DNA of 64,000 nucleotides, from NCBI GenBank assembly GCA_043821445.1, contig JBDRCT010000013.1, positions 6,270-70,269 of the forward strand, in the 5' to 3' direction. The DNA comes from Candidatus Omnitrophota bacterium. Lineage in GTDB: Bacteria > Omnitrophota > Omnitrophia > Omnitrophales > Aquincolibacteriaceae. This document shows positions 1 through 40,310 of this stretch, piece after piece. The position numbers and the translations under genes were made by a program. The notes below the pieces were generated by a model, which was given only the letters and a program-made list of their open reading frames with translations, searched no databases and was not told where the DNA came from. Every line of letters begins with the position of its first letter. The first letter of the stretch is position 1.

Positions 1-1874
1 ATCACGAGACTGTAGCGAAGGGCGTCGGCCCCCATCTCTTCGATCACTTCAAGCGGGTCGATGGAATTCCCGAGCGATTTCGACATCTTGAGCCCGGTGA
101 CCGCGCGAACCGTGCCGTGAATATGGATCTGGGTGAACGGGACCTCCCCCATGAATTCAAGGCCCGCCATGATCATGCGCGCCACCCAGAAGAAAATGAT
201 CTCCGGAGCGGTCACAAGGTCCGAGGTCGGGTAGAACCTCTTCAGGTCTTCTGTTTGATCGGGCCAGCCCAAGGTCGAGAACGGCCAAAGCCAGCTGGAA
301 AACCAGGTGTCGAGGACGTCTGGATCTGGCACAAATAATTCAGGTGATGAGTGACCATTTGGACATTTTGTTGGATGTTCTTCTCGTGAAATAAAAGGAA
401 TCGCATTTCCTAAATCAATTCTATCTTTTACTTCAAGATGCGCCCTAGGAATTGTTTTATTAGGCGCTAACTTACCACCCTTAGGATCTGCGTGCGCCTG
501 TATATCAGGATAACATTCACCGCAATACCATGCCGGAATCCTATGCCCCCACCAGATCTGGCGCGAGATGCACCAGTCGCGGATACCGCCGAGCCAGTTC
601 AGATAAACTTTGGTCCAGCGGTCCGGATAGAAAACCGTTCTTCCCTGCTCGTGCGCCTTAAGGGCCTTCGCGGCCAGGGGCTGCATTTTCACGAACCATT
701 GTTTGGAGAGATAAGGTTCGACCACGGTGTCACACCGGTAGCAATGTCCGACCGCATACAGATGCGAATCGCGCCGGACGAAAAGCCCCTGGTTTTCCAG
801 GTCCTTCAGGATTTTTTTGCGCGCCTCAAAGCGGTCGAGCCCCTTGTAGGCGCCTCCGTATTTATTGATCTTGCCGTCCGGCGTCATGACATTGATCTGC
901 TCAAGCTTATGACGGTGCCCCATCGCGAAGTCGTTGGGGTCATGCGCGGGCGTGACCTTCACGATCCCGGTCCCGAACTCAGGGTCCACGAATTCATCCG
1001 CGATCACCGGGATCCCGCGGTCCATGAGCGGCAGGATGACCTTCTTGCCGATCAAGTGCTTGTAACGCGGATCGTCCGGATGCACCGCGACCGCCGTATC
1101 GCCTAGCAGGGTCTCGGGCCGTGTGGTCGCGACCACGATATGGTCTTCCCCCATCTTTTCGTAGGGACTGCTCTTCCCCGCGATGGGATACTTGATGTGG
1201 TACAGTCCGCCCTGCACGTCCTTGTGGGCGGCTTCTTCGTCCGAGAGCGCGGTCTGGCAGCGCGGGCACCAGTTGATGATGTAGTTGCCGCGGTAGATCA
1301 GCCCGCGCTCATAGAGCGTAACGAACGCTTCACGCACCGCCTTGGAAAGCCCTTCGTCCATGGTGAACCGTTCGCGTGTCCAGTCACAGGAAGCTCCGAG
1401 CCGGCGGAGCTGGCGCGTGATGGTCGACCCGTGTTCGTTCTTCCATTTCCACACTTCTTTTAAAAAAGCCTCACGACCGACGTCCCACCGGGTTTTCTTT
1501 TCCTTGGCCAGTTTCTTCTCGACCACATTCTGTGTTGCGATCCCCGCGTGGTCCACACCCGGCACCCAGAGCGTATCCCGGCCTTTCATGCGGTTCCAAC
1601 GGACGAGAACATCCTGGATAGAATTATTGAGCGCATGGCCCATGTGAAGGATGCCCGTTACGTTCGGCGGCGGGATCACGATGACGTACGGAAGAACCCC
1701 AGACTGCGGACTGCAGACGGCAGACTTTTCTTTTGTTTTTGCTGTGGTCTGTGGTCTGTGGTCTGTAGTCTGAGCGGCTCCGTCGCTCTGCGGACGGAAA
1801 TAGCCCTTCGATTCCCAGAGGGAATACCACTTGGTTTCGACTTGCTTGGAATTGTATTGCTTGTCTAGTTTCAT
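1..1874 (-). CDS. valS: valyl-tRNA synthetase, N-terminal roughly 620 aa (gene runs off the window start)
   Basis: Manual minus-strand translation from ATG (complement of 1872-1874) gives [28 protein letters not shown]...[17 protein letters not shown]...[13 protein letters not shown]...EVWKWK...DTWFSS...KMSKS with no stop down to position 1. The ORF is absent from the track because it has no in-window stop. Class I aaRS HxGH-like (HMGH) and KMSKS motifs are present. Confidence 0.85.
335..530 (-). other. AT-rich (about 33% GC) mosaic segment inside valS encoding a Cys-x2-Cys...Cys-x3-His knuckle insertion
   Basis: Codon usage switches abruptly to AT-rich codons (AAT AAA ACA ATT CCT ... TGT CCA AAT GGT CAC) for the stretch [79 protein letters not shown]. 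Flanks are about 60% GC. Confidence 0.7.
1744..1772. repeat. GGTCTGT heptad tandem repeat (about 4 units) lying in frame inside the valS N-terminus
   Basis: ggtctgtggtctgtggtctgtagtctg encodes ..[10 protein letters not shown].. between the conserved YFRP and [13 protein letters not shown] blocks. The same heptad family recurs at about 28713-28735, 28803-28816 and 47020-47050. Confidence 0.8.
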
Positions 1875-1880
1875 ATTTTT

Positions 1881-1960
1881 TAGCGCAATGCGCGAAGCAC
1901 AACGCGCAACGTAAAAACCTGGCCTTTCCGTTGAGCGTTGCGCGTAGAACGTTGCGCGAG
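1881..1960. repeat. Repeat family A copy 1: roughly 80 bp GCGCAACG-rich palindromic element
   Basis: gcgcaatgcgcgaagcacaacgcgcaacgtaaaaacctggcctttccgttgagcgttgcgcgtagaacgttgcgcg. Inverted arms of CAACGCGCAA/CGTTGCGCG units flank a taaaaacctg core. Near-identical copies are at 4889-4967, 8959-9018 and 31467-31535. Confidence 0.8.
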
Positions 1961-1961
1961 A

Positions 1962-3533
1962 TCAGCCTTTGTGCAGTTTATATTCGATGGCTTCCACGAG
2001 GGCTTTCCAGCTGGCTTCGATGATGTTCTCATGAACGCCCACCGTGGTCCAGGTCCTGTTCTTGTCCTGGAATTCGATGAAGACGCGCACCTTGGCGGCG
2101 GTCCCGGCCTCGGAGTTGACGACGCGCACTTTATAATCCGTCAGGTGGATCTCGGAGATCGACGGGAACGAACGGCCGAGCGCTTTGCGGAGCGCGGAAT
2201 CAAGCGCGTTCACCGGACCGTCCCCTTCGGCGGATTCAAAATGCTCCTCCCCCCCGGCCATAATTTTGACGTCCGCGATGGAACGAGGGATCCCTTTGCC
2301 GATATTTTCGGTGCGGACCGAGATGTCCTCGACTTTAAAGAACGGTTTGAATTTTCCGAGAAGTCTTTGCACCAGAAGCTCGAAGCTCGCCTCCGCGGCC
2401 TCGAATTGGTAGCCCTCGTGCTCGAGGCGCTGGATCTCGGTCAAGATCTTCTGCGTCTCGGGCGAGTCCTTCCGAAAATGCATCTCGAGTTCCCGGGCCT
2501 TGATCATGATATTGGTCTTCCCGCCAAGCTCGGAGACGAGATAGCGGCGATAATTGCCGAGGGCCTTGGGTTCCACATGCTCGTAGGTTTTGGCGTTTTT
2601 TATCATCGCATTGATGTGCACGCCGCCTTTATGCGCGAACGCGGAACGGCCCGTGAACGGCTGGTGGTTCACGAGCGGCATATTGCAGACCTCGGCCACG
2701 TAGTGCGAGAGCTGGGTCCATTCCTTCATCTTCTTCGCCGGAAAGCAGGGGGTTTTCATTTTGAACTGCAGGTCCGGGATGATGCTTATGAGATTCGCGT
2801 TCCCGCAGCGTTCCCCGTAGCCGTTGATCGTTCCCTGCACCAGGACGCATCCTTCGCCCACCGCCTGGATGGAATTTGCGACCGCGAGTTCGGAATCATT
2901 GTGGCAATGGATGCCGAGCGGCGCTTTCACGGAGCGCTTCACTTTAAGGATCGCGTGACGGATCTCGTGCGGCAAGCTCCCGCCGTTGGTGTCACAAAGC
3001 GTGAGATTGTCGGCCCCCGCCGCCGCGGCCCTTTGGAGTGCTTTGAGCGCATAGTCGGGGTTCGCTTTAAAACCGTCGAAAAAATGTTCCGCGTCAAAGA
3101 TCACTTCGAGCTTCCGGTCCTTGAGATAAGCGACCGTCTCGTAGATCATCAGAAGATTTTCTTTGAGCGTGGTCTTAAAGACTTCCGACACGTGGAAATC
3201 CCAGGATTTCCCGAACACCGTCACCACCCGGGTGCCGGCCCCGATCAAAGCCTTCACATTGGAGTCGTCCTTGACCTTGGTGTGGGCGCGCCGCGTGGAG
3301 CCGAAGGCCGTGATCTTGGAACGCTGGATCCCGGCTTTCTTGACCATCGTGAAGAATTCCATGTCCTTGGGGTTCGAGCCCGGCCACCCGCCTTTGATGT
3401 AATGAATGCCGAACTTATCAAGCCGTTTCGCGATCAGGACCTTGTCGTGCGAAGACAGACTGATCCCTTCCGCTTGGGAGCCATCCCTTAAAGTCGTATC
3501 GTAAAATAGTATTTTTTTCTTTTTGGTCTTCAT
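1962..3533 (-). CDS. cimA: (R)-citramalate synthase / 2-isopropylmalate synthase family (LeuA/CimA, with C-terminal regulatory domain)
   Basis: 523 aa. N-terminal YDTTLRDGSQAEGIS, HCHNDSELAVANS, GTINGYGERCGNANL and a C-terminal LeuA-dimer-like domain. Closest in pattern to the CimA-type (DTTLRDGxQAE) rather than LeuA (DTTLRDGEQSPG). Confidence 0.7.
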   Translation of the reverse strand: MKTKKKKILFYDTTLRDGSQAEGISLSSHDKVLIAKRLDKFGIHYIKGGWPGSNPKDMEFFTMVKKAGIQRSKITAFGSTRRAHTKVKDDSNVKALIGAGTRVVTVFGKSWDFHVSEVFKTTLKENLLMIYETVAYLKDRKLEVIFDAEHFFDGFKANPDYALKALQRAAAAGADNLTLCDTNGGSLPHEIRHAILKVKRSVKAPLGIHCHNDSELAVANSIQAVGEGCVLVQGTINGYGERCGNANLISIIPDLQFKMKTPCFPAKKMKEWTQLSHYVAEVCNMPLVNHQPFTGRSAFAHKGGVHINAMIKNAKTYEHVEPKALGNYRRYLVSELGGKTNIMIKARELEMHFRKDSPETQKILTEIQRLEHEGYQFEAAEASFELLVQRLLGKFKPFFKVEDISVRTENIGKGIPRSIADVKIMAGGEEHFESAEGDGPVNALDSALRKALGRSFPSISEIHLTDYKVRVVNSEAGTAAKVRVFIEFQDKNRTWTTVGVHENIIEASWKALVEAIEYKLHKG

Positions 3534-3546
3534 GATGAACTACCCG

Positions 3547-3628
3547 AGTATCAAAGCATCAGGGTGTCAAGGTGTCAAAATTTTAAAGTTTTAGCGTTTT
3601 GATACATTGATACTCTGATACCCTGATA
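3547..3628. repeat. Repeat family B copy 1: GTGTCAA / TTGATAC imperfect palindromic spacer element
   Basis: gtatcaaagcatcagggtgtcaaggtgtcaaaattttaaagttttagcgttttgatacattgatactctgataccctgatact. It fills the cimA-lysC intergenic gap exactly. Related copies are at 7329-7404, 32646-32712 and 53921-53960. Confidence 0.75.
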
Positions 3629-4849
3629 CTATTTTTTGCCGAGTCCGAACGCCTGGTGAATGACGCGGGCGGCAAGCCTGCCTTTATCGCCGGCCACCAC
3701 GACTGAGATCTTGATCTCGGAAGTGGAGATCATATCGATATTGATCTTGTTCTTGGCCAGGGTCGAGAACATCTTCGACGCGATGCCGGAATGGGACCGC
3801 ATGCCGATCCCGACCACGCTCACCTTCGCGATATGTTCGTCGCAGGTGACGTTCGTGGCGCCGACCTTCTTCATGGCCGCTTTCACGACCTTCATGGCCT
3901 TCACAAGTTCGTTCTTAAAAACGGTAAAAGAAATGTCCGTGGAATTCGTCTGCGTTTTGTTCTGGATGATCATATCCACGTTCACATTCGCGTCCGCCAG
4001 GGTCTGAAAGACCTTGGCCGCCACGCCCGGACGGTCCGAGACGCGGAACAGGGTGATCTTGGCTTCATCTTCGGCGAGTGCGACGCCGCTTACAACGACT
4101 TCTTCCATGGCTTTATTCTCCTTCGTGATAAGAGTTCCTTTGTGGTCGTTCTGGGAATTACAGACCCAGATCGGCATGTTGAATTTCTTTCCGACTTCGA
4201 TCGAACGTGAATGCATCACTTTTGCGCCGAGTGACGCGAGCTCCAGGATCTCGTCATAAGTGACCCGGTCCATCTTTTGCGCTTCCGGGATCACGCGCGG
4301 GTCCGCGGTGAAGATCCCGTCCACGTCCGTGTAGATCTCACAATGCTTTGCCCTGAGCGCCACCGCGAGCGCCACGGCCGTGAGGTCCGAACCGCCGCGA
4401 CCGAGCGTCGTGATCTCGCCTGAGGACGTTTGGCCCTGGAACCCGGCGACGATCACGATCTTGCCGGCGGACAGGGCTTTCTTGATGCGGTCCGCGCTGA
4501 TGTTCTGGATGCGGGCTTTGCTGTGGAATTCATCCGTGATGATCCCCACCTGCGAACCCGTGAAAGAAACCGCTTCGTGGCCTAATGTATGGACCGCCAT
4601 CGCCAAAAGCGCGATCGAGACCTGCTCCCCGGTCGAAAGAAGCATATCCATTTCACGCTCCTGGGGATCTTTATTGATCTGGTCTGCGAGCGCGATCAGG
4701 TCATCGGTCATATCCCCCATCGCGGAAACGACCACGACGACCTTGTGTCCCGCCTGTTTTGTCTTGATCACGCGTTGCGCGACACGCAGGATCTTTTCCG
4801 CATTCGCGACCGAAGAACCTCCGTATTTCTGTACGACTAATGACATATT
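3629..4849 (-). CDS. lysC: aspartate kinase (monofunctional, two ACT domains)
   Basis: MSLVVQKYGGSSVANAEKI...VVVVSAMGDMTDDL...GRGGSDLTAVALA plus C-terminal ACT repeats. The likely true start is the internal ATG (MSLVVQKYGG) at 4849; the track ORF extends to 4894. Confidence 0.85.
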   Translation of the reverse strand, partial: NMSLVVQKYGGSSVANAEKILRVAQRVIKTKQAGHKVVVVVSAMGDMTDDLIALADQINKDPQEREMDMLLSTGEQVSIALLAMAVHTLGHEAVSFTGSQVGIITDEFHSKARIQNISADRIKKALSAGKIVIVAGFQGQTSSGEITTLGRGGSDLTAVALAVALRAKHCEIYTDVDGIFTADPRVIPEAQKMDRVTYDEILELASLGAKVMHSRSIEVGKKFNMPIWVCNSQNDHKGTLITKENKAMEEVVVSGVALAEDEAKITLFRVSDRPGVAAKVFQTLADANVNVDMIIQNKTQTNSTDISFTVFKNELVKAMKVVKAAMKKVGATNVTCDEHIAKVSVVGIGMRSHSGIASKMFSTLAKNKINIDMISTSEIKISVVVAGDKGRLAARVIHQAFGLGKK

Positions 4850-4888
4850 CTTTCCTTTGTTTCGTTGAGTTAGAAAGTTCAATAAAAA

Positions 4889-4967
4889 GCGCAACGCTCA
4901 ACGGGCAACGCACAACGTTAAAACCTGAAAAAATTCGTTGCGCTTTGCGCGTAATACGTTGCGCTCG
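4889..4967. repeat. Repeat family A copy 2
   Basis: gcgcaacgctcaacgggcaacgcacaacgttaaaacctgaaaaaattcgttgcgctttgcgcgtaatacgttgcgctcg, lying between the thrB-like stop and the lysC start. Confidence 0.8.
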
Positions 4968-4986
4968 TAAAGGACGCATTTCTCCT

Positions 4987-6192
4987 TTACGAAGCTTTTG
5001 TCATGAAAAAAGGCATCAGCTCCGTGGTTTTGTTGAATTTCACTTCTGAAGTCTTGGCCGCGATCTCCGAGAACCGCTCGATCTCGCCGGGCATGATATT
5101 CTTGCCGCTCATGGCGAACGGAACGCTGTCGCGGACGATCTCTTTCATTTTCCAAAGGGTCGCATGCCCCGGCGTGACCAGAAGGCGCGAATCCTTGGAG
5201 CGCTCAAGATATTTGCGGATCTTCGAGAGAACAAAAAAATCGATCCCCTCGATCGCCGAGACCTTCCCCTTCACATCCCCGGCCCGCGACGCTTCCTCGG
5301 GAGTATGAAGATGGAGGCAAACAAAATCTTTTTCTTCCATGGCCTCGATCGCCACCTTGGAGATCTTGTCATAAAAAGCCGCGGGCTCTTCGCCCCCCTC
5401 CTTGACCTCCATGACCGTGAGCCCCGCCATGCGGCCCAGGCCCCTCGCGTATTCGCGCGCGGCGACCATCGCGCCTCCGGAAACGTCAAAACATTCGCGG
5501 AAAGGTTTAAGGACCGGCTTCTTTCCCTGCCCCCAAAGCCAGATCATGTTCGCGGGATTCTCGCCGAGATCCACGCGCACCTGGTTGATCTCATGATCCT
5601 GCAAGAGAAGCCTGGCGTCATACATCAATTTCCGCATCAATTCCTCGCCCGGGCCCTTCGGCAGCACATCCTCGATCTTTTCGCCGATCACGCTTTCCGG
5701 CGGCTGGGTCTTCGCGGACAGGGCATCAAATCCGTTCGCGTCCTTGATCACCGCAAGATGCCGGTGCCCGGAACCCGAGAAGAACCGCACAAAATCGCTG
5801 GCGACCTTTTTGTTCAAAAAGTTGACAAGCGCCTTCGCCTCTTTAGTGCTAATGGCTCCGGCGGTCGGATCGGCCAACATGCCCGCTGCCTCGGTGATGA
5901 AATTCATGCAGAATGCGACTTCTTTGTCGTCGAGCGTCAATTCCTTGTCGGCAGCCTCCAGCGGCCCGCGGCCGGTATAAAGCTTCGACGCATCGTAGCC
6001 TAAAAGATTGTACAGGCTTATATCCGCGGAAAGCGACAGACGGTCGGAAACAAGCTTCGCGGTCCCTACCTTGCCGTTCCGCGCAAAAAAGGTCAGATTC
6101 GGGACCTTGGCCGCTTCCAAGGGAGTTTTTCCTCCGAGCTCTTCGGTTGGATGATCCGCAGCGCCCGCGAGAACCACAACGATAGATTTCAT
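4987..6192 (-). CDS. Cofactor-independent phosphoglycerate mutase-like metalloenzyme (ApgM / PF01676 family). Its position in the thr operon suggests it is the non-canonical homoserine kinase.
   Basis: 401 aa with an ApgM-like fold ([15 protein letters not shown]..., ..[18 protein letters not shown].., ..LLVTPGHAT..). Its stop overlaps the thrC start by 4 nt, and it sits between thrC and lysC exactly where thrB would be. No canonical GHMP-kinase thrB is present in the operon. Confidence 0.6.
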
Positions 6193-7259
6193 CGGATAAC
6201 CTCCTTTACGGCATCGAGAGTGGATTTGACCTTAGAGATCGGATCGTCAAAACTGAGCGCAAAATCAGGGTCTTTGAGCCCCGCACCTGTCAGCGTGATC
6301 ACAATGCGGGACCCTTCTTTGAAAAATCCTTTTTTCGCAAGGTTGATCACTCCTGCGACCGGCGCAACGCTGGCCGGTTCCGCGAAAACGCCCTCGCGCT
6401 CCGCGATAAAACGGTACGCCTTCGTGATCTCCGTATCCGTCACCTTATCGATCAGGCCGCCCGATTCGTCGCGCGCGTTAACGGCACCCTGCCAGCTTGC
6501 AGGATTCCCGATACGGATGGCGGTCGCGATCGTCTCCGGTTTCTCCACCGGATGCCCCAGTACGATCGGGGCGGAACCCGCGGCTTGAAAGCCGAGCATT
6601 TTCGGTAAGGTCTCGGACTTCCCCGCTTTTTTATATTCCTTGTAGCCCTTCCAATAAGCCGTGATATTACCGGCATTCCCGACCGGGATCGCGTGATATT
6701 CCGGCGCGTCCCCGAGATCGTCGACGATCTCGAAGGCCGCTGTCTTCTGTCCTTCGATGCGGTACGGATTGATGGAATTTACAAGCGTGATCTTTCCTTC
6801 CCGGGTGATCTCTTGCACGAGCTCAAGCGCCTTGTCAAAATTCCCCTCGACCATAATCACCTTCGAGCCGTAGCGGTACGCCTGCAGGAGTTTTCCTTTG
6901 GCGATCTTCCCTTCCGGGATCAACACAAAACATTTGAGGCCGCACCGGCACGCGTAAGCCGCGGCGGAGGCGGACGTATTCCCGGTCGAGGCGCACATCA
7001 CGGCCTTCGAGCCCGCTTCGACCGCCTTCGAAATCGCCAGGGTCATCCCGCGGTCCTTGAACGAGCCCGTCGGGTTCAGGCCTTCGAATTTGTAATAGAT
7101 CCGGATATTCTTCAGACCAAGTTCCAGGGGCAAGGCCTCCGCCAGAATGAGCGGCGTGTTGCCTTCATTGAGCGAAATGATGGGAGTCTTATCCGTGACC
7201 GGAAGATACTCCTGATAACGCTCGATGATCCCGATCTTTTTGACCGCGTATTTTCCCAT
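6189..7259 (-). CDS. thrC: threonine synthase
   Basis: 356 aa; PLP-lysine motif [18 protein letters not shown]; fold-type II PLP enzyme; short ThrC form. Confidence 0.85.
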
Positions 7260-7328
7260 AAAATTCTACCTTTTACCGTTCAGTTTAAACCTTTTAGTTT
7301 TTGTCATTCCTGAAACTGAAGCAACTCG

Positions 7329-7404
7329 CATCAAAGTATCACGGTGTCAATGTATCAAGGTTTTAAAGCTTTACCCTTTGACACTTTGATGCGCTGACAC
7401 TGAC
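7329..7404. repeat. Repeat family B copy 2
   Basis: catcaaagtatcacggtgtcaatgtatcaaggttttaaagctttaccctttgacactttgatgcgctgacactgac, in the hom-thrC intergenic spacer. Confidence 0.75.
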
Positions 7405-7474
7405 CCATTTCCAACTTCCTGAATTTCTGTCCGCACAAGAAAAACATGCTGGAACCGGAATAACGCTCCGAGCC

Positions 7475-8770
7475 CTACGCCTCTTCCATACGGATGACCT
7501 GGGTCCTGCCTTTGATACAGGACATGCCGTCGATCTCGCGGACCGCGGCCCTTAGGTCTTTTTCTTGGGTATCGTGCGTCAAAAGGATGAGCGGCACCAC
7601 GCGCCCGGCGCTGCGTTCGCGCTGCATGACATCCGAGATGCTGATCTTGTGTTTCCCTAGGATCTTCGAGATGTTCGAAAGCACGCTGGGTTTGTCGATC
7701 ACATAGAACCTCAAATAATAACGCGACAGGATCGAAAAAATACTTTTCACCGGAAGGGTCTTCCCGAGCGCTCGGACCATGAACCGGTCCTCGGCGGGCC
7801 CCGCGGCCCCGGCCTTGGCGATATCCACCAGGTCCGCGATCACGGCACTTGCGGTCGGATGCGGCCCCGCCCCCCGACCGTAAAAAAGCACATCCCCCAC
7901 TTCGTCGCCGCGCATCAGGATCGCATTGAACGAACCGTTCACATTTGCGAGGATGTGCGAATTCGGCAAGAGGGTCGGCTGGACGCGCGCTTCCATACCC
8001 TTTCTCGATCGTTTGGCGATCGCGAGCAATTTGATCGTGTACCCGAATTCCTTGGCGAAGGCGATATCATCGCTTGAGATCTCGGTGATCCCTTCGCAGT
8101 AAATGTCCTTGAATTTCACTTTCCCGCCGAAAGCGAAACGGGCGAGGATCGCAAGCTTGTGGGCGGCGTCGTGCCCGCTCACGTCAAGAAAAGGGTCCGC
8201 CTCGGCGAAACCCTGCTTTTGAGCGCCGGCCAATGCCTCGGCGAAGCTCATGCCCTTGGCGGTCATCTGGGTCAGAATGTAATTCGTGGTCCCGTTGATA
8301 ATGGCATGCACCGAATCGATACGGTTCGCCGCAAGCCCTTCACGAAGTGCCTTGATGCACGGAATACCACCCCCCACGCTCGCCTCGAAACAAAGCCAGC
8401 GTTTCATCCGGTGCGCGAGTTCGAAGATCTCATCGCCGTGTTCGGCCAGAAGGGCTTTGTTGGCGGTCACCACATGCTTGCCGTTCCGGAGCGCTTCTTT
8501 GATCAACTGCCGGGCGACCGTCGTACCCCCGATCAGTTCGACCACGACATCGATGGACGGATCCCGCACGACGGCAAAAGCGTCCCGGGTCATGAGGTGT
8601 TTCGGAGGATGGACTTTTTTATTCCGCCCGGGATATTTCTCCGCGATCTTCGCGAGTTCGAAAGACACCCCCAGTTGGCGGGCGAATAAAGCCCTCTTCG
8701 CCGTAAGGATCTCATAAAGCCCGGTGCCGATCTGTCCCAACCCGAGAAGTCCGATCTTGATCTTTTTCAT
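7475..8770 (-). CDS. hom: homoserine dehydrogenase (with C-terminal ACT domain)
   Basis: MKKIKIGLLGLGQIGTGL NAD-binding N-terminus, catalytic domain and C-terminal ACT. True start is ATG at 8770, preceded by GAGAGGAAAT; the track ORF starts at an upstream TTG. Confidence 0.85.
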   Translation of the reverse strand: MKKIKIGLLGLGQIGTGLYEILTAKRALFARQLGVSFELAKIAEKYPGRNKKVHPPKHLMTRDAFAVVRDPSIDVVVELIGGTTVARQLIKEALRNGKHVVTANKALLAEHGDEIFELAHRMKRWLCFEASVGGGIPCIKALREGLAANRIDSVHAIINGTTNYILTQMTAKGMSFAEALAGAQKQGFAEADPFLDVSGHDAAHKLAILARFAFGGKVKFKDIYCEGITEISSDDIAFAKEFGYTIKLLAIAKRSRKGMEARVQPTLLPNSHILANVNGSFNAILMRGDEVGDVLFYGRGAGPHPTASAVIADLVDIAKAGAAGPAEDRFMVRALGKTLPVKSIFSILSRYYLRFYVIDKPSVLSNISKILGKHKISISDVMQRERSAGRVVPLILLTHDTQEKDLRAAVREIDGMSCIKGRTQVIRMEEA

Positions 8771-8850
8771 ATTTCCTCTCAAGTAAACGCCCTAAGTTCA
8801 GTCATGACAAAACCTTAAGAAAGTCGGGGTAGCCCTGATTTTCGATCCAT

Positions 8851-8917
8851 AAAAAAATAACAAGGTGATCAGGACAACCCTGACTTCCTTGTTAATTCCC
8901 CGAACGAAAGTCAGGGT
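8851..8917 (-). promoter_or_regulatory. Candidate transcription attenuator (terminator / antiterminator alternative hairpins) in the 5' leader of the hom-thrC-thrB-lysC-cimA operon
   Basis: On the minus strand: AACAAGG-[aagtcagggttgtcctgatca]-CCTTGTT followed by AUUUUUUUA, an intrinsic terminator with an inner tcagg/cctga stem. An upstream CCCTGACTT...AAGTCAGGG 9-bp stem overlaps the terminator's 5' arm, so the two are mutually exclusive. The structure ends about 80 nt before the hom ATG. Confidence 0.4.
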
Positions 8918-8958
8918 AGTATATCTCACCCTAAAGTAAAAATCAAACAGCCCTTCCT

Positions 8959-9018
8959 CGCACAACGCGCAAAGCTCAACACACAACGAATCGAGCGTTG
9001 CACGTTGCGCGTTGCGCT
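8959..9018. repeat. Repeat family A copy 3
   Basis: cacaacgcgcaaagctcaacacacaacgaatcgagcgttgcacgttgcgcgttgcgc, upstream of the thr operon leader. Confidence 0.75.
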
Positions 9019-9102
9019 TGATCTTCCTCTCCCTTTACTTTATGGTTCGTTGATGTATACTACCCTTGTTTTTGTGAAAAAATATCAACTCAGAGGCCAA
9101 AA

Positions 9103-9528
9103 ATGATGAATAAGTTCATCCCCGCTCTTGTTCTTGTCTCAGCAATCGCTGGTTTTGGTATGGCGCGGTCCGGCCAGTACGATGAAGATGCGCGCGCACA
9201 GGAAAAGATCCAGAAACAGATGGCTCAAGAGGTTTCAACGTCCGAAAAACGCCATCCCGCAAAGAATTTCGCGACGGGCGTCAAAGAGGTCACGTATGAT
9301 AACGTCCGGGACACTTTAAGCGATACGGGTGGATCCACCATGCATGAGAAACCGGTGATCGGAACCTTGGATGGAACGCAACAGGCCGGAGAGAAGGTCG
9401 TCGATAACACCATCAAGGGCGTCAAGAAGGTCGCGTCCCTCGGCTACGCGAAGGATGACAGCTACGAGATCGAACAAGCCGAAAAAGGCTCCGGTGACGC
9501 CGCCAAGATCAGACTCTTCCAGTTTTAA
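9103..9528 (+). CDS. small secreted hypothetical protein (signal peptide)
   Basis: 141 aa. N-terminal MMNKFIPALVLVSAIAGFGMA signal-like segment followed by a hydrophilic K/E/D-rich region. AGAGG sits 9 nt upstream of the ATG. Confidence 0.5.
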   Translation: MMNKFIPALVLVSAIAGFGMARSGQYDEDARAQEKIQKQMAQEVSTSEKRHPAKNFATGVKEVTYDNVRDTLSDTGGSTMHEKPVIGTLDGTQQAGEKVVDNTIKGVKKVASLGYAKDDSYEIEQAEKGSGDAAKIRLFQF

Positions 9529-9551
9529 AAATTACGCGGCACTTCAACAAA

Positions 9552-9583
9552 AAAGCCGGGCTAAAAAAGCCCGGCTTTTTTTA
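9552..9583. terminator. Bidirectional rho-independent terminator shared by the convergent 9103-9528 gene and the giant ORF
   Basis: aaaaagccgggctaaaaaagcccggcttttttt: a perfect GC stem flanked by A-run and T-run, 24 nt after the plus-strand stop and 17 nt after the minus-strand stop. Confidence 0.85.
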
Positions 9584-9599
9584 TGTCTCGACCCGATCA

Positions 9600-12500
9600 T
9601 TAAGCCGCAACGGCAAAGGCAAGGGTGGCGTCGTAACTTCTCTGAAGGGCATTGACCAGGGACTCGGCCACGATCCAGAACCCATCCCGGCCTTGGCTTA
9701 CTTCCCGAAGCCTTGCATCTTCCCCGCCGGACCACGCCCAAAGGAGCGCTGCCGCCAAGGTCCCGCCATTTTGCCCCTGTGTTTTGAAGAAAGAGACTCT
9801 TTTCCTCAGACGCTGGACCAATTCCTGGGATGGAAGGATCTGCTTTGAAAGATGAATGCCCGGCGCGCCCGGCCGGTCAAAACTGCTCTGAGCCCCCGCA
9901 AGGCCCCGGTCGGTCCTCGTCACGTGATCAAGCTTCAGCAAAGCGCCAAGCTCTTGGTCCCGCACCTGGCCGCGCTCATTATAAACCACGATCCGGACTC
10001 CCTGCCCGGAAAGGGCCGCGTAAAAATATTCGTTCTTCTGCGCCACGGAAAGATTCGGAAAATCCTCGGCATCCACGAACACCGTTGCCGGCTGTACGCT
10101 CTTGCGGATGTCCCGGACCATTCTGTCGGCAATATCTTTATGGGATGTCGCGTTTCTTTTACCGGCTTGTATATTCGTGAGGGTGTGCCGCATATCCGTC
10201 TCAACGCGGACTTCGGAACGACGTTCCGAAACTGCTGCTGCGAACAGCGGATTCTGTTGCAACGGGCGCGCTATCGTCGCAAATAAGTCACGGGTTCTAT
10301 CGGCCCGCTTCATCGCCCAAACGTTTAAAATAGACGCGGTCGGCTCGTTCACATACCGCGTCTCAGGACGGATCTGTCCTTCGCTTTGCAAAGGCGGATC
10401 GGGACGCCGGCCTTCGGCCTTGCTTAAGGCATTACGTTCAACGCTCAACGTATTTTTTTCTTCCGTTGTACGTTTCGCCTTGCCCGTTGTGCCGGAAATC
10501 CCCCTCACCTCGGACCGCTTGGTTCCCTCGCTCGCTTCTGAAGGCCGGGCAATGATTCGATCCAGCTGTGCTTGTTCCTCCCGGAGATGGGGATAATCGT
10601 ACTCAAAAACACCGGACTCGTTCCTGAACATATTAAAATAGGCGCTGACCTTGTCATTCCAGCCATGCGCCGCGACAGCGGCCTGAAGCACGATCGTTTT
10701 CCTGTGGTCTTTGTTCCTGATCGCTTGGATCCCCCGGGTCACCGCCCTCAGAAATCCTTTGCCGTTGAATTCCTGAAAGAAAAATGCATCTCCCATCCCT
10801 CTTTGCGGGTCGAATTCATTCAGCGTATCGGCGATCCCTCCGACCTCGTGGGCCACTACCGCGGTCCCGGCCGAAAGTGATTCCAACTGGCTCAGACCTC
10901 CCGGTTCATATTTCGACGGCATCAAAAAGAGATCGCTCGCGAGATAGATCCTGAGCGCCTCACGGAACGCGATGAACTCAAATTCTCCCCGGACCCTTCC
11001 TGCGTATTTCGGGTCCGCTTCCAGAGCGCGGATCGCGTCCCTAAGCGCATACGCGCTTGGGTCGAAGTCGGCAATCGGGCCCGCGATCAAAAGCTGGACA
11101 CGGGGGTCCCGGTCCAGGATATTTTTCGCTTCGCTGGCCACTAATTCCACGCCCTTCTGGTCCGCGATCCTCCCGACCATGGAAACAAGGATGGCATCCT
11201 CCCGTTCCTCCAGGCCGTATTTGTTTTGAATTTCTCGCTTGGCGAAATCTTTGAATTGGGGCAAGTTTTGGAAAAAAGCGGCCGGGTCTTCTGTCCCGGG
11301 GTCACCCCCGCCCATGCGGATGAATTCGGTCCTCAGGGCTTCGATATCGATCCCGTTACTGATCCCGTAGACCTTTCCCTTCTTGAGAAAGTCTTCATGA
11401 AGACCGTTCCCTTTTTCGGGGGTCTGGATCTCGCGGGCATAACTTTTGCTGACGGTCAATGCGAAATCTGAATGGAGGATCCCTCCGCGGACCAGATTCA
11501 ACCGGGTCGGATGGTCCGGATTTTCCCCTTCGCGATTAGAAAGTCCCCTGTAGTGCTGCCCTTGCAGGCGGAACAGCGGCCACAAGTCGATCCCATTCTC
11601 GATCGTAAAAAAGCGCGCCTGATAATCGCGGCCTAAATTGTGCATGGCAAAACCGAGTTTGGGCACGAGTCCCGTTTCGAGATCATAAAAATGCTCGTCC
11701 GTGCGGTAGTCAAAATCTCCTGGGATCGGATCCGCTTTAAGATAAGCAAAGGCCGGCGCTGCCATCCAGTCATGAGCGAGGATAAAGTCCGGATAAAGGT
11801 CGAACTCCCGCATTACTTCCAGGCTTCCGCGCGACAAAAGGATCGACCGTTTCAATTGGTCGGAGGAGGAAACGCTCGGGTAGAGCCGGTTGGCCAGATG
11901 CGGGTGATAGAGAAAATAGATCGTAACCCCCTCGTTTTGAGCCCGGTAAACCTCCGCCGTCTCCGTGTGCGCGGGACTCTCAACGCGGTTCGAAAAGACA
12001 TTGATCGTGGGCCCCAGCGCGACCTGAACGCGCCGTCCCGTCGCCTCAAGCCGTACCGTTTTCCCGCCCATCTGGATCCCGTTCCGGAGAAGTTCTTCCG
12101 CACTCGTATGTTTTTTCCCCTGCGATTCGTTATAAAGAAAGGTCACGATACTGACTTCGGAACCCGCTTGCGCCAGTGCCTTGGGAAGGCCTTCCAGGAC
12201 CTGGGCCATTCCGCCCGCGATCGAGAACGGGGCGATTTCGGGCGAGATCATGACCACATGCCCGACACCGATATTCTCGATGACCTTCAGCGCGATGTCC
12301 CACTCGCTGCCCGCCCCCGTCTGCAACGCGATTTTCTTCAATTTGTTCCTGTAGTCGGAGACGAGTTGCTGCAGGATCGCGTCATTCCGGGTCACCTCAA
12401 AAAGCCAGCGGGACAGAAGTCCGGGCCCCTTGCCCTCCTCCGCGAGAGTCTGCCGCAAGCGGACCATCACTTGGACGAAGGTATCCAGATTTTTCAGACT

Positions 12501-15500
12501 GCTCTTTATTTCATTTTTCCACTGCGTTCTCATCTCAGCGCGTTTCGCAGCACTTGTGAGTGCGCCTTCCAATGGATGCTTCGGATCATCGGCGGCCCGC
12601 ATCTCAGAACGTGCAACGCCGGTCCCTTTACTTTGAAAATAATGATCGAAGATCCTCTCTGTCTCTTTCGCGGACAATGCACCTTCCTCATGGGGCGGTT
12701 GGATCAAAGAAAAGTTCCCCGGGAGAGGCTTCCCGACCGAAATCACATCCAAACCCGATAGATCCAAAAAGCTCCTGGCGACACCGTCCGCTTGGAATTC
12801 ATCGTCGAATACGATCATCCGTTCCCGGGAATGGCCCATGCCTTCGAGGTCCACGATGGCGTCATTTTTCCCCGTGGTCTTTTTACCGACCAATAAGACC
12901 CGGCCATCCGGACTTCGAAAAACCAGCCTTCCAAAAAATGTCGGCGATAACTGGCCACTTAAGGCCTTTCGCAGGTCCGAAAGCATGATACGTAGCTGCC
13001 ACCTCGGCATTTGGTTCTTGGGATTAACGTAGTAATCAAAATTAGGTGCATAGAGAAAGGGGGAATTTGTTCCGCGTGTTTTTTCTTTCTCAAATTGATC
13101 GAGCATCTTAGGCGTCGGCGCAAACCCGAATATTTCCTGCCACCGCCGATCCAGCTCATAAAGCGCGCTGACAATCTTCGGGCCCTCCCCGGCTTCGTCC
13201 TCTTTCCACCGTCTTTGTTTACCGTATCGTTCGAAATAGGCCTGATCTTCAACGATCTCAATCTTGTCGCGGTCACCGATGCGGAATGTGAATTTATGCC
13301 CAGCGCCCGACGAATAAAGCAGGAACCTGTCAAAATATTCCGGTTTAAAACCGGGATACCCGAAAAGGTTCTTAAGGAACCCTAATCCTCGTCCTTTTTC
13401 AAGGTTGGAAAAATCCGCGGGATTAAAAACACGCAGGGTATCGATCGCAACGGTCTTCCCTTCCTGAAACAGGCGGATCAAATGGTCGATCATCGCCGGA
13501 GAAACATAATCATGAAGAGTCACAAGCGTGTCGTCGACATCAAAAACGAACACATCCTTTTTCTTGAGTATCTCCGAAATATCTTCCCGGGAAGTGAGCC
13601 GCGGTGAAACGGTCGACCGCCAGGATCCTTCCGGTGATAATTTGAAATCGGCCCCCTCCCCGATCGAGATCTGAGCGCCTTGAGAAGCTAACTTAAATCC
13701 GGACCGCTCCAAAACTCCACGAACGGTTAAAGTCCCGACTTCCTGGTTGTTACTCCCCGCCAGCCGACTGAGCCAGCGAATATCTTCGCGGAACTCGTTC
13801 AAAGACTCGGCAATCTCCTCCAATTTGTCCGTGTACTGTCCTTCAAAAGAGTGAATATAATCATTCAGGAAGCCGATCCTATGGGCCAATCCTTCCAGCG
13901 TCATCATCCCCGGCAAAGAAACGCCGTATCCCAGAGAAAGGAATTGAAGTCGGTCACGCAGTTGCGGGTCGGTCACCTGCGGAACAACGGACCGTAAATT
14001 ACGCATCAAACTTCGCATGACCAATGGCGAAATCCGAGGCCTCCCATCGAATGGGTAGATGCAGTCGAGAAGAAACTTAACGGCTTCATTCGCGTTCAGA
14101 GAACCGGACTTTATCCACAGGGCCATGATCAACGCATACACACAGACTTGCATTGTCTCGGCCGCAAAAATGTTAGGGCCGCTATCATGCAACTCTCGCG
14201 CGGAATGCTCCTCCAAGATCCGAAGAATGTTTTCTTGAACGGTCCCCCACATTTCATCCGCTCGCGTCGCCATCGCCGTGATGGCCGCCGCACGAACCGC
14301 CGGGGAGAATCCGAGGACATCGTCAAACTGCTGCTTCTGATCTTCCGTCAGTGTGCGCTGCGCGGACCAAGACCGGATCTTCATGATCACGAGCTCGGGA
14401 TCCGTGTTTCTGTCCCAATGGTTCAGCACATCCAAAGCGTCTTTTCTTTGTCGCAATCGTTCTTCATAGGCCGCCGTGATCACAGACTCCCGTCCGGGAA
14501 CGGAGATTGTCTCGCGCCAATAACTATCCGACATAGATGCCGAACGCTCCCTCCAGACCAAAACCAATTTGCCGTCAAAGATCCGGACCATCTTTTCCAT
14601 AAGAAGCTCGCGCAAACCGTCCGCCAGAGATTTATCATCCTCTTCTGCGACCGCAAGACTCATCGTTCCGGACCGGTAAGCCTCGTCCAACTTTTCGATC
14701 CAGCGCAATGCCACCGGAGATAATCGCCGTTTCTCGAACGCATCCATGAATCCTCGAATCTCCACGCATCGTCTTGCCAGCCAATCCATCTGTTGGTCCG
14801 CACTGCCGCGTTCGATCAGCTTACGGGCATACTCCGGATCCAATTCTCCGAGAGAAAGGAACCATTTTATCCGCGCGACATGTTTGTCGGGAAGCACCAT
14901 GAGCGGAAGAACGCCGCGCCGGATCTGTTCTTCAGGCCCGATAAATTGTCCGTTTGAATAGAGGCTGATATAAGGCAGTAGATTGCGCCCTTCGGGTCCC
15001 CATATCTTTTTTTGATGATCCGCGGACAGCAACTGAGGAACCTTCCCGTCTCCCGCGTCCATTTTGATCCCGGAACCGGTCAGCCATTGTTTCATGAGCG
15101 GCTGTAGCGCCTGGAGTTCCTCCTGCGACACACCTTCGACGATGACATAAGTAGAGTCAAAATCGCTTTGGTCCAGTAAGATCCCCGCTGTCAGCGAATT
15201 TGGGAAAGAAAGAATCTCCTTAACGGAGGCCTGGGGATGGGTCCTGCGGACCTCTTCCTCAAGCCTCATGGTCGCGTATTTCAAAGCAGCCCACACGCGG
15301 CCGCTGATATTGTGAACCGGAACGCCTTCGTCGGCCGCATATTCAGCCATGGAGACCACCGGAACTTTCGCCTCTTGCCCAACCCTTTGGCGGCCATGGT
15401 AATGAGAATTTTCGATCATGCTCGAAGAAGCAAGGACCTTCACACCTTTTTGCTCCAAAGCCGTGATCATCCTCATCTGTTCTTCCCCGTCCGTCAGCTC

Positions 15501-18500
15501 GCCCGTGACTAAAATAACGGCATCGCCGGGCATCAACCGGTACATGCTGTACGCATAACCGTCCAAGCCGATATAGTTCACGGCCAGAGATGACATTTCA
15601 TCGTAGCCTACGGGCTCCGGACGGTTCGTCACACCGACAAACGGTACATGAGAAGCTTGAGAAAGTGCCACACCACCGTAGAAACCGGACGTCGATGGGC
15701 CTAGGACGTAAACCGTTTTTCCTTCTTTATAATATTCGCGTCGTATCGTTGCCAGAGGGGTCCCCAACACTTTCTCGATCTTCTGTTGCATGGCAGGTCC
15801 GAATTTCCGCAGCTGATCGGGGGTCAATGGAACGGTCATTCCGCGAAAAGCATGATCCGTCCAAACCCGTCCGGGATCGTTCCTCCTCGGATAGTGCCGG
15901 ATATCCAGATCAAGATCTGTGGGACCGGATAGGCCCTGGGCCTCGACCGATTCCGGCGGCATATAAAGCTCCACCGGCTGTTTGAACGGGAACATGTGTT
16001 GGCGGTCGAGCGCGGCTGAAACCTTTGCCAATTCCTCTTCTGTCAAAAAATCCAAATAAAAATACGGGACCGCTCCCCCCTCAAGCCTCTCGGAAGCTTC
16101 TTTAGAAGTCCTAAGAACTACCGCGGCGCCATCAAGACCAGCATTCGCGGCTTTCAGCATGTTCGCGATATTGACGACGACGCGACCGGTCGTGCTCTCG
16201 TCGTCGATCAAGAAGAACCGGCTCCCGGCGGGCACCACCATATGAGAGAAATATTCCGGGCTGTCCCGCAGCATATGTTGTTCTTCCATTTGAACCACGG
16301 ATTCTCCGGCCGGCAAGGTCGGATCGAACGGATCAAAACTCCGCTTGGTCAGCGTGATCATGGGAATACCGAGCTCCAAAGAAGCGAGTATGCCAGGGAC
16401 AAGTCCTGCGTTGTATTTTCCAATAATGAAAGAACGCGTCGGATCCCCTTTCATTTGTTCAAGCATGCGACGGCCCTCAGGGGTGCCTCGCAACTTTTCA
16501 AGGAGGGCGTGAACGATGCTTTCTCCCATGACAACCGAAAGAGGCTGGTGGCTTCCTGTGATCGGGACTCCCTTTTTGGGCGCATTCGAATGGAGCATTT
16601 CCGCCGGTCTGAATTTGGGGTGGAAAACAACGTTTACGGGCTGGATCCGCCCCTCATAAAAAAACATCCGTTTTTCATCCTCCGAAATGACCTCGCTGGA
16701 GGCTTTCCCAAAGATAGAACGAAGAACCCACTCCGGATCCATGCTTCCTAGGACATCTGCTTCACGACGGAAAACCCCAAGACTTGTCTCGCGCACGTTC
16801 TCTAAAATCAAAAGTTCCCCGTTGATCCGGATACGTCTTAAAGCTTGACTCACTGCATCTTCGCCGGTCCTCATTTCCGAACGCCGGGAATTTTCATTTA
16901 TCAGTTTAAAATACGCTTTTAAAATACGTTTTGCACGATCGGGTCCTGTGTCCGCATCACTGGATCTCAGTTGCAGCACCGGGACCTCTCCGGGAAGCGG
17001 CGCGGCGACGGACACCCTCGTCAAACCGGGCAACTTGAGTAAAGACACTTCGAGTCCGTCCGCCGCAAAATCATGCCCCCAAAAGCTCACCTTTTTCCTG
17101 GAAAGGCCCATCGCTTCAAGATCCAAAAGCGCTTCATTTTTTTGGTTGAACGTTTTAGCAACAACGATCCCTTTGCGCGAGACGACCCTAAACGTGAGGA
17201 GGCTAAAGACCTCAGGGGGCAATGCCCGGCTAAGAGCCTCCTTGAGATTTTCCAACATGATCCTTAACTTCCAATTCTCGATCTCCCCTTGCTTGCTCTG
17301 TGGGAAATACAGGATCGCCCTTTCGTCCTCCTGGATCTTTGCCCCACGTACAAAACCCTCATAATCACGGTCCGGATTAGGGAACCCGAAATCCGTCGAA
17401 AAACCGTTTTCGATCTCCAGGATCTTTCGCATGATGGCGGGAAGGTATTTTCCGTCCTCTTCGGAAAAAGTTTTCGAAGCTACAAACTTCGCCGAAAATT
17501 TCGTCTCCAGCACGGGTTCCACATTGAACCAACTCGGAGGCTGCTGGTTATGCCTCAAACGAAACCCATATTTGTAAGTCCCAAAGCCTGTATAAGCGAA
17601 AAGACGCCCGAGCATTTCTGGCTTAAAGTCGGGATGTTCAAAAATGTTTTTTAGAATGCCGATGCCGTCGCCTTTACGGATGTTCGCGAAATAATCCTCG
17701 ACCGTAAGCCCTCGCGCGGTGACCAAAGCCACAGTCTTGTGCCTTTTCAAAAGCTCGATGATCAGGCCGATGACCTCAGGATCAAAACCAGCCGGTGAAA
17801 TAAGAACGTCGTCAAGACCGAAGGCAAAGGTATCTCGATCTAAAAGCTGCTGCGCGATCTCCGTCTCGGTCTGCGTTTGGGTAGGAAGGTCCGGAATAAA
17901 AGTCGTCCCTTGGCGTACGAACCGGATCTTTTTCAAGTCCGGCGATCTTGCCGATTCTAGGGTAAAGACTGTACCGGCGCTGTCTGAGTGGAGTCCGAAT
18001 TTTGTAAGCATCCCCAAGGCTTGACCCCAGATCTTGGGATCTAAGCTCTGATTCATGGCGATGTTGATCACCTTCTGCACCGACGGTGTCACAAGTTCTT
18101 CCAAGACCCCCGTAATCTCCGTGGCGTAATTCGTCGGATCGCGTGGAAGAGTCTCTAAATAGCGACCGAGATATTTCAACTCCGCAGGAGGATGATTTTC
18201 TTCGATCTCATGGGTCATGACCGCGTCATCCGCTTGTTCCTGATGCCGCCTCAGAAAATCAAGCGCGGCGTCCAGTTCATCACGCCTCAGGGAATCCACA
18301 AAAGCGGTCCGGCCGATCCCGATCGGGACGACCATCATCAAACGGCCACCCTTATGCGCCTTGGCATCTTCCAGTCCTTCCCATGCGCGGTCAGGATTTA
18401 GGGCCGGATGATAGAAGGGCAATTTCAACTTGATATGTAACGAGAGAATGCGCCGGAAATCTTTATCGCTCAACATGCCGCGAGCGTGCGCGATGAAGGC

Positions 18501-35896: not shown

Positions 35897-36752
35897 AAGA
35901 TTCCGCGCCTTCCCTTCCTTTAAATGTTTTTCCTGTTTCAGACTCGGATGAAAACCTCTTGGGAGAGACACTGCTAAGAGCCTTCTCCAGCAACGTAGGA
36001 ACCCCTTTCCCGGCACGGGACGCCTCATCCTCGTTCAGGAAAATAACACTGGGTTTATGTTCGACCCCCTTGATGATCTTCATGGTGCCTTGATTCTGTT
36101 CGGCCGACGGCTTTTGACCTTGTCCGGACAAAAGACTCATCCGGATCTTCCCCTTGGCCATGGCACTGAATACTGTCTCAGCCTCTTCGGGTAAAAAAGC
36201 GAGAGTGATTTTTTGAATCATTTCGTCGCGATTTTTTTGGACAGCAATGATCGGGACCGAGTAAGCAAGGGTGGTGAGAACCGTTTTTCCCTGCATATCC
36301 GTGATGTCTCCCATGATATCGGCATATTGCCCGGACGCCACCCGGTTTGTCACACCGACGATCTCGTTTAAGTCAAGGGTCACGGCCTGCATGCCAGGTG
36401 GGATCGGAAGCGATTCTTCAGAAACCTTTGGGGCCTCTGCCACCGGAACCTCGACCTGAGAGCGAAGAATAGGAGCACCTTTTTCGACCGCCTCTTTCAA
36501 CTTTTTTCCGATCACGTCCTCTTTTTGAAGAAAAAGATCATCTGCATTCGTGGACGCCTTTAAAGGAGCGGAAAAGGCAAGATCCTCCGCGGCTAAAACA
36601 GCATCCTTCTCCAAAGATCCGGCGGCCACCACACACCGCGCTCCTTCTGAAACGACGACCCTAGGAGGAGCCGGCTTTTTAACATAGATCACAAATGCTA
36701 AAAGGCCGCAGATGACAGCTACGATCAATGCGGTAAACTCTTTTCGCCCCAT
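35886..36752 (-). CDS. cpaB: Flp pilus assembly protein CpaB (SAF domain)
   Basis: N-terminal TM (EFTALIVAVICGLLAFVIYV), SAF/RcpC-like region. Located immediately upstream of the secretin gene. Confidence 0.7.
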   Translation of the reverse strand: MGRKEFTALIVAVICGLLAFVIYVKKPAPPRVVVSEGARCVVAAGSLEKDAVLAAEDLAFSAPLKASTNADDLFLQKEDVIGKKLKEAVEKGAPILRSQVEVPVAEAPKVSEESLPIPPGMQAVTLDLNEIVGVTNRVASGQYADIMGDITDMQGKTVLTTLAYSVPIIAVQKNRDEMIQKITLAFLPEEAETVFSAMAKGKIRMSLLSGQGQKPSAEQNQGTMKIIKGVEHKPSVIFLNEDEASRAGKGVPTLLEKALSSVSPKRFSSESETGKTFKGREGAESYGT

Positions 36753-40297: not shown

Positions 40298-40310
40298 GGT
40301 CTTCCCTCCT

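Follow-up and report, generated by a model that had tools for sequence, protein, structure and literature searches.

Which enzyme makes O-phosphohomoserine, the compound that threonine synthase (ThrC) requires, when the threonine operon encodes no recognizable homoserine kinase (ThrB)? This question is raised by a 64,000-nucleotide stretch of DNA from Candidatus Omnitrophota bacterium (contig JBDRCT010000013.1; the whole stretch is called the window below), in which a gene that we designate X (4987..6192, minus strand) follows the genes for homoserine dehydrogenase (hom) and threonine synthase (thrC) and precedes the gene for aspartate kinase (lysC). A first-pass annotation of this DNA had described X as a phosphoglycerate mutase (PGM)-like metalloenzyme and had proposed that it is probably the ThrB of this operon. 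Our comparisons instead favor, with a probability of roughly 0.55, the reading that X is a pseudoenzyme derived from the homoserine kinases of the HomK family, that it has a noncatalytic role in the threonine pathway, and that O-phosphohomoserine is made by another enzyme.

The idea that a PGM-like protein can substitute for ThrB is already published. Proteins that match TIGR02535 were proposed as ThrB replacements, and Bacteroides thetaiotaomicron needs BT2402 in order to make threonine (PMC7311316); BT2402 and the diverged DET_RS08350 of Dehalococcoides mccartyi rescue E. coli thrB::kan, and the family was named HomK (GapMind 2026 preprint, 10.1101/2024.10.14.618325), so the first-pass annotation was right that the family includes non-orthologous homoserine kinases. 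In the same preprint (10.1101/2024.10.14.618325), homoserine kinase is one of four gaps in amino-acid biosynthesis that most often go unexplained, the phosphate donor of HomK is suggested not to be ATP, and diverged HomKs are recognized by four criteria: proximity to hom, a catalytic serine (S56), the ligands of the metals, and a glutamate (E299) where PGMs have lysine. X as a ThrB substitute is an instance of this published idea, and the same criteria can be applied to it.

X is an ATG-started open reading frame (ORF) of 401 amino acids and is PGM-like, as first described: it matches the Pfam families PF10143 (PhosphMutase; 2.1e-35) and PF01676 (Metalloenzyme). The sole NCBIfam model that it passes is that of a broad subfamily, TIGR00306 (357.7 against a cutoff of 320); it is below the trusted cutoff of TIGR02535, the 'proposed homoserine kinase' model (341.2 against 446.3), and below the cutoffs of the PGM equivalogs NF003242 (354 against 426), NF003104 (226 against 489), and NF003160 (138 against 468). 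With TIGR02535, BT2402 scores 604.9, the intact proteins at the syntenic position in Omnitrophota score 511–552, and the relatives of X with a degenerate active site score 351–384. By itself, the shortfall of X does not settle the matter, because DET_RS08350, a confirmed HomK that complements thrB, is reported to be below this cutoff, too (10.1101/2024.10.14.618325). BT2402 itself passes NF003242, 'cofactor-independent phosphoglycerate mutase' (582.5 against 426), as do intact Omnitrophota HomKs (L066, L053, and L059); thus, this model cannot separate HomK from PGM, and the Prokaryotic Genome Annotation Pipeline (PGAP) would systematically name HomK proteins PGM. Since X passes only TIGR00306, its relatives are named in the same way: the 120 best (57–90% identity) are all '2,3-bisphosphoglycerate-independent phosphoglycerate mutase' or 'cofactor-independent phosphoglycerate mutase' and, where the organism is named, all except one ('Verrucomicrobiae bacterium') are from metagenome-assembled genomes (MAGs) of Candidatus Omnitrophota.

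X is 32% identical to BT2402 over its full length, and the two proteins have the hinge motif PAN-W-W (H..N..R...PAN.iW.W) in common; X is 24–28% identical to the ApgM structures, that is, 2ZKT (PH0037 from Pyrococcus horikoshii) and 3KD8/3IDD (Thermoplasma acidophilum). The AlphaFold2 model of X (pLDDT 93.4, pTM 0.91) has the same two-domain alkaline-phosphatase-superfamily fold as ApgM; with Foldseek, its best matches in the PDB are 2ZKT (E = 2.5e-31, TM 0.78/0.82) and 3KD8, with TM scores in the range of 0.78–0.86. X therefore resembles the HomKs (BT2402 and DET_RS08350) in fold, family, hinge motif, and position beside hom and thrC. In neighbor-joining trees, which are distance-based and without support values, X is located among the Glu-type HomKs and not among the Lys-type PGMs. 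On these sequence comparisons X is a member of the HomK (Glu-type) lineage, apart from the glycolytic PGMs, and its nearest intact relatives are Glu-type; the earlier warning that a PGM annotation would mislead is borne out.

Residues at the former active site

The pattern D...S...DxxxH...DH...H describes the center of the cofactor-independent PGMs (iPGMs) and alkaline phosphatases. As the HomK reference for this center we took BT2402 from the B. thetaiotaomicron genome by means of a published primer and aligned it (MAFFT) with X, 3KD8, and 2ZKT; for DET_RS08350, the N-terminal 125 amino acids were used. The reference residues in BT2402 are D9, S56, E299, D302, H306, D346, H347, and H356. The second-metal ligands given in Appendix 3 of the preprint (D274, H278, and H325) correspond to N274, E278, and V325 in the BT2402 sequence; our alignment places these ligands at D302, H306, and H356.

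At these eight columns, X has A9, A56, H296, E299, R303, G342, H343, and I352, that is, Asp9 and the catalytic Ser56 of BT2402 are replaced with Ala, Glu299 with His, Asp302 with Glu, His306 with Arg, Asp346 with Gly, and His356 with Ile; only His347 is kept. Four of the six metal ligands are therefore non-ligand residues in X, a fifth is changed from Asp to Glu, and one His remains, so the description of X as a metalloenzyme does not hold. Written as a signature, the eight columns read AAHERGHI in X and DSKDHDHH in both 2ZKT and 3KD8, in which the specificity column is occupied by the Lys of the PGMs; X thus differs from the ApgM PGMs both in having His in place of this Lys with a degenerate D/S/D..H/DH/H center and in its context, amino-acid biosynthesis. 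With respect to the published criteria, X has the genomic one, its location near hom, and lacks the other three of the four (Ser, metal ligands, and Glu). HomKs, unlike X, retain Ser56, Glu299, and the metal ligands.

The former catalytic columns are also free to vary in the clade to which X belongs. Among X and 118 full-length relatives, the nucleophile column contains Ser in 55, Ala in 30, and Pro in 30; in the same 119 members, the Asp9 column contains Ala, Ser, or Pro plus a single Gly and a single Thr, the His306 column Arg or Leu, and the Asp346 column Gly, Cys, or Ala, with no Asp, His, or Asp, respectively, in any of them. The His356 column is highly variable, and the entropy of the specificity column is in the 96th percentile for the clade. 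The mean entropy of the eight columns is 1.86 as compared to 1.07 for random sets of eight columns (P = 0.008); constraint at these former catalytic columns is weaker than at an average residue, opposite to what a functioning active site would show. Given both these variable columns and the absence of the Ser, metal ligands, and Glu299, the proposal that X is probably the ThrB of this operon is not supported.

Two technical explanations were considered and discarded. The first is misalignment of the catalytic columns: HMMER (phmmer) alignments to the PDB chains 3KD8, 3IDD, and 2ZKT yield the same motif columns as several MAFFT alignments, all anchored by invariant flanking motifs, and in the AlphaFold2 model a helix (56–63) begins at residue 56, the usual place of the nucleophile. 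The second is a nucleophile shifted by one position, to S55; this column is not invariant (Ser in 90, Ala in 10, Thr in 5, Leu in 4, and Gly and Met in 3 each of the 119 members).

The losses are not restricted to the signature: of the positions with at least 90% conservation among the intact syntenic HomKs, 40 are not kept by the degenerate clade, including, in addition to the signature residues, the motifs YSxGH, CxPPHD, and GATG.Y.T as well as K280 and T355. These HomK motifs probably line the cleft.

The same residues bear on the function under which databases list this protein, a glycolytic cofactor-independent PGM of the archaeal type (ApgM). The TIGR00306 match, the iPGM names of the relatives, and the ApgM fold would all agree with this function; however, X fails the PGM equivalog models (NF003242 and NF003104), lacks the catalytic Ser, the metal site, and the specificity Lys, has Glu-type HomKs as relatives, and is encoded in a threonine-synthesis context. 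We therefore reject this assignment, which we consider scarcely credible, on the residues, the relatives, and the failed equivalog models.

Origin and conservation of the degenerate proteins

In an exhaustive search of representatives clustered at 50% identity, the whole X clade is a single representative, and the next match is 44% identical. The near-full-length sequences among the best 150 representatives include 70 with the intact Glu-type signature DSEDHDHH and only two with Lys in the specificity column; another group of these near-full-length sequences, 56 in number, is degenerate (at least three of seven residues lost, in diverse ways) and is located near X in the distance tree. A scan of metagenomes identified 80 loci encoding proteins with 41–97% identity to X, essentially all with the gene order hom-thrC-[X homolog]-lysC-cimA (cimA encodes citramalate synthase). 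The signatures in these loci form a graded series: intact DSEDHDHH at ≤47% identity to X; DSRDHLHH, DPRDKLLH, and similar at 48–52%; largely degenerate signatures of the S/N-P-R-E-R-T/C-Q/H type (e.g., SPRERTQP) at 53–65%; and AAHERGHI-like at ≥72%.

In a tree of concatenated hom, thrC, and lysC, the degenerate loci form one clade beside the intact ones, and the changes that they share earliest are E299R and D346L. One lineage within Omnitrophota thus first exchanged Glu299 for Arg and Asp346 for Leu and then, step by step, lost Asp9, Ser56, His306, and His356. The degenerate and intact forms occupy a single syntenic slot in Omnitrophota, and the active site degenerated inside this phylum and in place; the intact-to-degenerate series within one operon slot would be a natural record of an enzyme turning into a pseudoenzyme under selection. 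In agreement, 115 of the 119 closest relatives of one intact syntenic protein have DSEDHDHH, and the intact relatives for which the homology-search taxonomy names an organism are from Omnitrophota, with one 'PVC group bacterium'.

In several intact-HomK Omnitrophota loci (L066, L068, L080, L065, L063, and L073), the gene block is broken by extra ORFs. In L066 and L068, Pfam identifies these as DFP/CoaB-like, a TPM-domain phosphatase, and LemA in the interval from thrC to HomK, with a CstA transporter in that from HomK to lysC; these inserted genes give no hint of the phosphate donor. Some intact HomKs are part of fusion proteins of ∼970–1100 amino acids with an N-terminal HomK domain that has DSEDHDHH (P0149, P0157, P0168, P0188, and P0199); the C-terminal extension of P0149 (∼700 amino acids) has no Pfam match.

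A protein that has lost its catalytic residues might be a functionless remnant, the product of a gene in decay that still awaits deletion. The loss of these residues and a modest acceleration (the rate of X relative to that of thrC is 2.1x in the degenerate clade and 1.2x in the intact group) would be expected in this case. However, the ratio of nonsynonymous to synonymous substitution rates (dN/dS) for X and its ortholog in a related locus (L002) is 0.074, similar to those for the neighboring enzymes (0.055 for hom, 0.040 for thrC, 0.064 for lysC, and 0.052 for cimA); more than 100 clusters, with identities as low as 48%, have an intact gene of full length; 67 columns are invariant across 56 diverse clade members; and the fold is confidently predicted, with the ribosome-binding site and the coupling to thrC conserved. 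A decaying pseudogene is rejected by the dN/dS and the conservation, and we judge it very improbable. As estimated from these rates, X is under strong purifying selection that is partly relaxed as compared to the intact HomKs. Catalytic residues that are lost and no longer constrained, in a protein that as a whole is under purifying selection, are the pattern of a pseudoenzyme.

The conserved residues point to other parts of the protein. Sixty-five positions are conserved in the intact and degenerate groups alike, including the hinge (H200..N203.VR206.DL.ENPAN..W.W), which also marks the degenerate proteins of other lineages. Twenty positions, almost all of them in the cap domain (∼91–160), do not vary in the degenerate clade over the whole range of 50–100% identity (e.g., E91, E101, K128, D151, and S159). 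Such extreme conservation might indicate that X has acquired a new enzymatic activity, performed by cap-domain and hinge residues on a metabolite of the threonine or aspartate pathway; the earliest changes, in which the specificity Glu is replaced with Arg and one ligand is lost with the rest of the center intact (DSRDHLHH), also resemble a switch in substrate. However, the nearest intact HomKs already have about half of the 20 residues (K41, A107, A121, F134, F138, T259, and N365 are new), so the invariant cap residues are features of the lineage and not a new site. In addition, no enzyme with the alkaline-phosphatase-superfamily fold is known to work without the Ser/metal center, and no missing step in the pathway is apparent. 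We consider a new activity improbable.

Degenerate homologs are not confined to Omnitrophota. In a Planctomycetota MAG (P0126) the gene order is hom-X'-lysC; it is hom-X'-lysC also in P0124 and hom-thrC-X'-lysC in P0161 and P0132, and the homolog in a Capsulimonas-type cluster (P0286) is ≤5 kb from hom and thrC. The exception is P0282, in a cluster with a Candidatus Brocadiia MAG protein, whose gene has a glutamine amidotransferase gene on one side and dnaA on the other. HomK itself is already known; in the literature on Omnitrophota homoserine kinase, PGM pseudoenzymes, and TIGR02535, we came across no account of degenerate homologs of HomK, so the degenerate form that seems to be under selection in Omnitrophota and other lineages appears to be undescribed.

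Tentatively, and with more doubt than confidence, we suggest that these proteins may constitute a widespread HomK-derived class without the Ser/bimetal center, whose members would be either obligate noncatalytic subunits or sensors, by which the flux through homoserine dehydrogenase, threonine synthase, or aspartate kinase would be controlled or channeled, or Ser- and metal-free homoserine phosphotransferases. It is equally tentative that this class would extend across Omnitrophota, the Planctomycetota MAG, the Capsulimonas-type cluster, and several unnamed metagenomic lineages, with its members, in one reading, as essential parts of hom/thrC/lysC operons. If true, Ser- and metal-free phosphotransfer would be a new mechanism for the alkaline-phosphatase superfamily.

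Possible functions of X

X descends from HomK, an ApgM-like homoserine phosphotransferase that stands in for ThrB in many bacteria, and has lost the phosphoserine/two-metal center of the alkaline-phosphatase superfamily. If X is a pseudoenzyme, it would no longer transfer phosphate by the mechanism of its family. It would be kept as a partner of ThrC, Hom, or aspartate kinase that binds a ligand, regulates, or acts as a scaffold, with the conserved cap domain (and the hinge) as its likely working surface, and the O-phosphohomoserine for ThrC would be provided by a different enzyme encoded elsewhere in the genome.

Several observations weigh against this interpretation. The first-pass annotation had noted that the operon has no GHMP-kinase thrB, and this is true of the entire window: neither a GHMP ThrB nor a second HomK was found in it by Pfam on the large ORFs, by tblastn with E. 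coli ThrB and BT2402, or by a six-frame regular expression for GHMP motif II. Likewise, BLAST found neither ThrB nor a second HomK in ∼90 related loci with flanks of ±5–10 kb. X is as tightly kept in the thr operon and as closely coupled to thrC as an active enzyme would be. Family residues on the cleft side are retained (D13, D57, H200, N203, R206, W218, W220, K310, E315, D318, and D355), and two arginines, R303 and R354, are at the former metal site, so from the sequence a remodeled, metal-independent site is conceivable. Finally, we identified no partner protein or ligand for the putative noncatalytic role of X.

The same observations are those expected if X were still a functional homoserine phosphotransferase with a remodeled site (e.g., with arginine-based binding of phosphate and direct transfer without a phosphoserine). 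X occupies the HomK slot and is coupled to thrC, it is under strong purifying selection, no other kinase is nearby, acidic and basic cleft residues are kept together with the new Arg at 303 and 354, and DET_RS08350 provides a precedent for a protein that scores below the TIGR02535 cutoff and complements thrB. However, the N-terminus of DET_RS08350, as encoded by its gBlock, keeps the Asp and the Ser, whereas X is without the nucleophile, five of the six canonical ligands, and the specificity Glu. The former catalytic columns differ between close members of the clade and are more variable than average, contrary to the behavior of catalytic residues; 40 additional HomK-conserved positions are gone; and the rate of X relative to its neighbors is accelerated. 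We therefore consider a remodeled phosphotransferase unlikely, and favor the pseudoenzyme.

A pseudoenzyme of the type proposed here would have a precedent: the 'prozyme' of trypanosomatid S-adenosylmethionine decarboxylase (AdoMetDC) is a pseudoenzyme kept as the partner or regulator of a metabolic enzyme. Like X, such partners are homologs of an active enzyme that have lost catalytic residues, are under strong purifying selection, and are encoded with their own pathway; a difference is that no active paralog of X was found in the sequence examined (the window and the flanks of the related loci). The step that X would no longer catalyze, the formation of O-phosphohomoserine for ThrC, is performed in other organisms also by GHMP ThrB and by ThrH, a phosphoserine:homoserine phosphotransferase; the folds of both are unrelated to that of X.

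These assignments matter for annotation. GapMind, KEGG modules, and PGAP names would call X a PGM or, by context, a ThrB substitute, and both are probably wrong for this clade. Omnitrophota have been debated as free-living or host-dependent bacteria; because X is probably neither a PGM nor a ThrB substitute, their threonine prototrophy cannot be deduced from its presence. The case also makes the gap of the missing homoserine kinase directly testable, that is, who phosphorylates homoserine and what X does.

Organization of the locus and neighboring genes

All of the genes in the threonine block are encoded by the minus strand, and the Pfam and NCBIfam matches agree with the neighbors first assigned to X. 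Homoserine dehydrogenase with an ACT domain is encoded by 7475..8782 (NF004976, 532 bits), with ATG 8770 as the probable true start; threonine synthase (356 amino acids; Pfam PALP; TIGR00260, 313.6 bits against a cutoff of 167) by 6189..7259; monofunctional aspartate kinase (lysC/ask) with two ACT domains by 3629..4846 (NF005155, 595 bits); and citramalate synthase (cimA; TIGR00977, 750 bits), the last gene in the conserved five-gene block, by 1962..3533. For lysC, ATG 4846, preceded by the ribosome-binding site AAGGAAAG, is more likely the true start than the listed TTG 4894; the ortholog in L002 has 405 amino acids.

The first-pass annotation had reported that X overlaps thrC by 4 nucleotides, and this is correct: the sequence ATGA (6189..6192, minus strand) contains both the ATG of X (6192–6190) and the TGA of thrC (6191–6189), and a Shine-Dalgarno sequence, AAGGAGG (6200..6206, minus strand), is located within the 3′-end of thrC, 7 nucleotides ahead of the ATG. 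Judged by this arrangement, X is predicted to be translationally coupled to thrC. The overlap is present in 28 of 45 loci of the degenerate clade as compared to 2 of 19 intact-HomK loci, in which other genes often intervene.

The proposal of a single hom-thrC-X-lysC operon is less secure. The 140-nucleotide spacer between X and lysC (4847..4986, minus strand) contains a long, stable hairpin, made of repeated GCGCAACG / CGTTGCGC elements, that is followed by a U-run and is terminator- or attenuator-like (−51.6 kcal/mol; z = −5.76; none of 200 shuffled sequences was as stable), and a terminator-like site is predicted at 4899..4887. Because of the hairpin and the U-run, the transcription unit may here be hom-thrC-X, with lysC-cimA located beyond a terminator or attenuator. 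An Rfam scan of 1..10000 matched no family to the spacer hairpin; in the same scan, STnc390 (27 bits) and Leu_leader (26 bits; gathering score of 50 for each) were matched at 9543..9666 (minus strand), probably by chance or by a terminator hairpin at the 3′-end of a giant ORF.

This giant ORF (9600..29042, minus strand) is located directly upstream of hom and encodes a single protein of 6480 amino acids with many domains of sugar-metabolism enzymes: two NAD epimerase/dehydratases, GT2, inositol monophosphatase, ROK, a 3-dehydroquinate-synthase-like cyclase, a GT5 starch-synthase-like enzyme, and GT1/GT4; the related loci L002 and L003 lack it at the corresponding position. A 719-amino-acid protein encoded between gltB and carB (54032..56191, minus strand) has PPDK_N (phosphoenolpyruvate/pyruvate-binding, ATP-grasp kinase) as its sole Pfam match; it is an orphan small-molecule-kinase-like protein, and nothing ties it to homoserine. 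Elsewhere in the window, two full-length genes for the large subunit of carbamoyl-phosphate synthase are in tandem (56629..59916 and 59926..63147, minus strand; 50% identical) and are adjoined by carA, which encodes a small-subunit-like glutamine amidotransferase (63168..63938, minus strand). A Tad/Flp-type pilus cluster (33992..43840, minus strand) encodes a secretin, RcpC/CpaB, a TadE-like protein, two T2SS-F proteins, a T2SS-E ATPase, a ParA/MinD-like ATPase, and an embedded GGDEF diguanylate cyclase.

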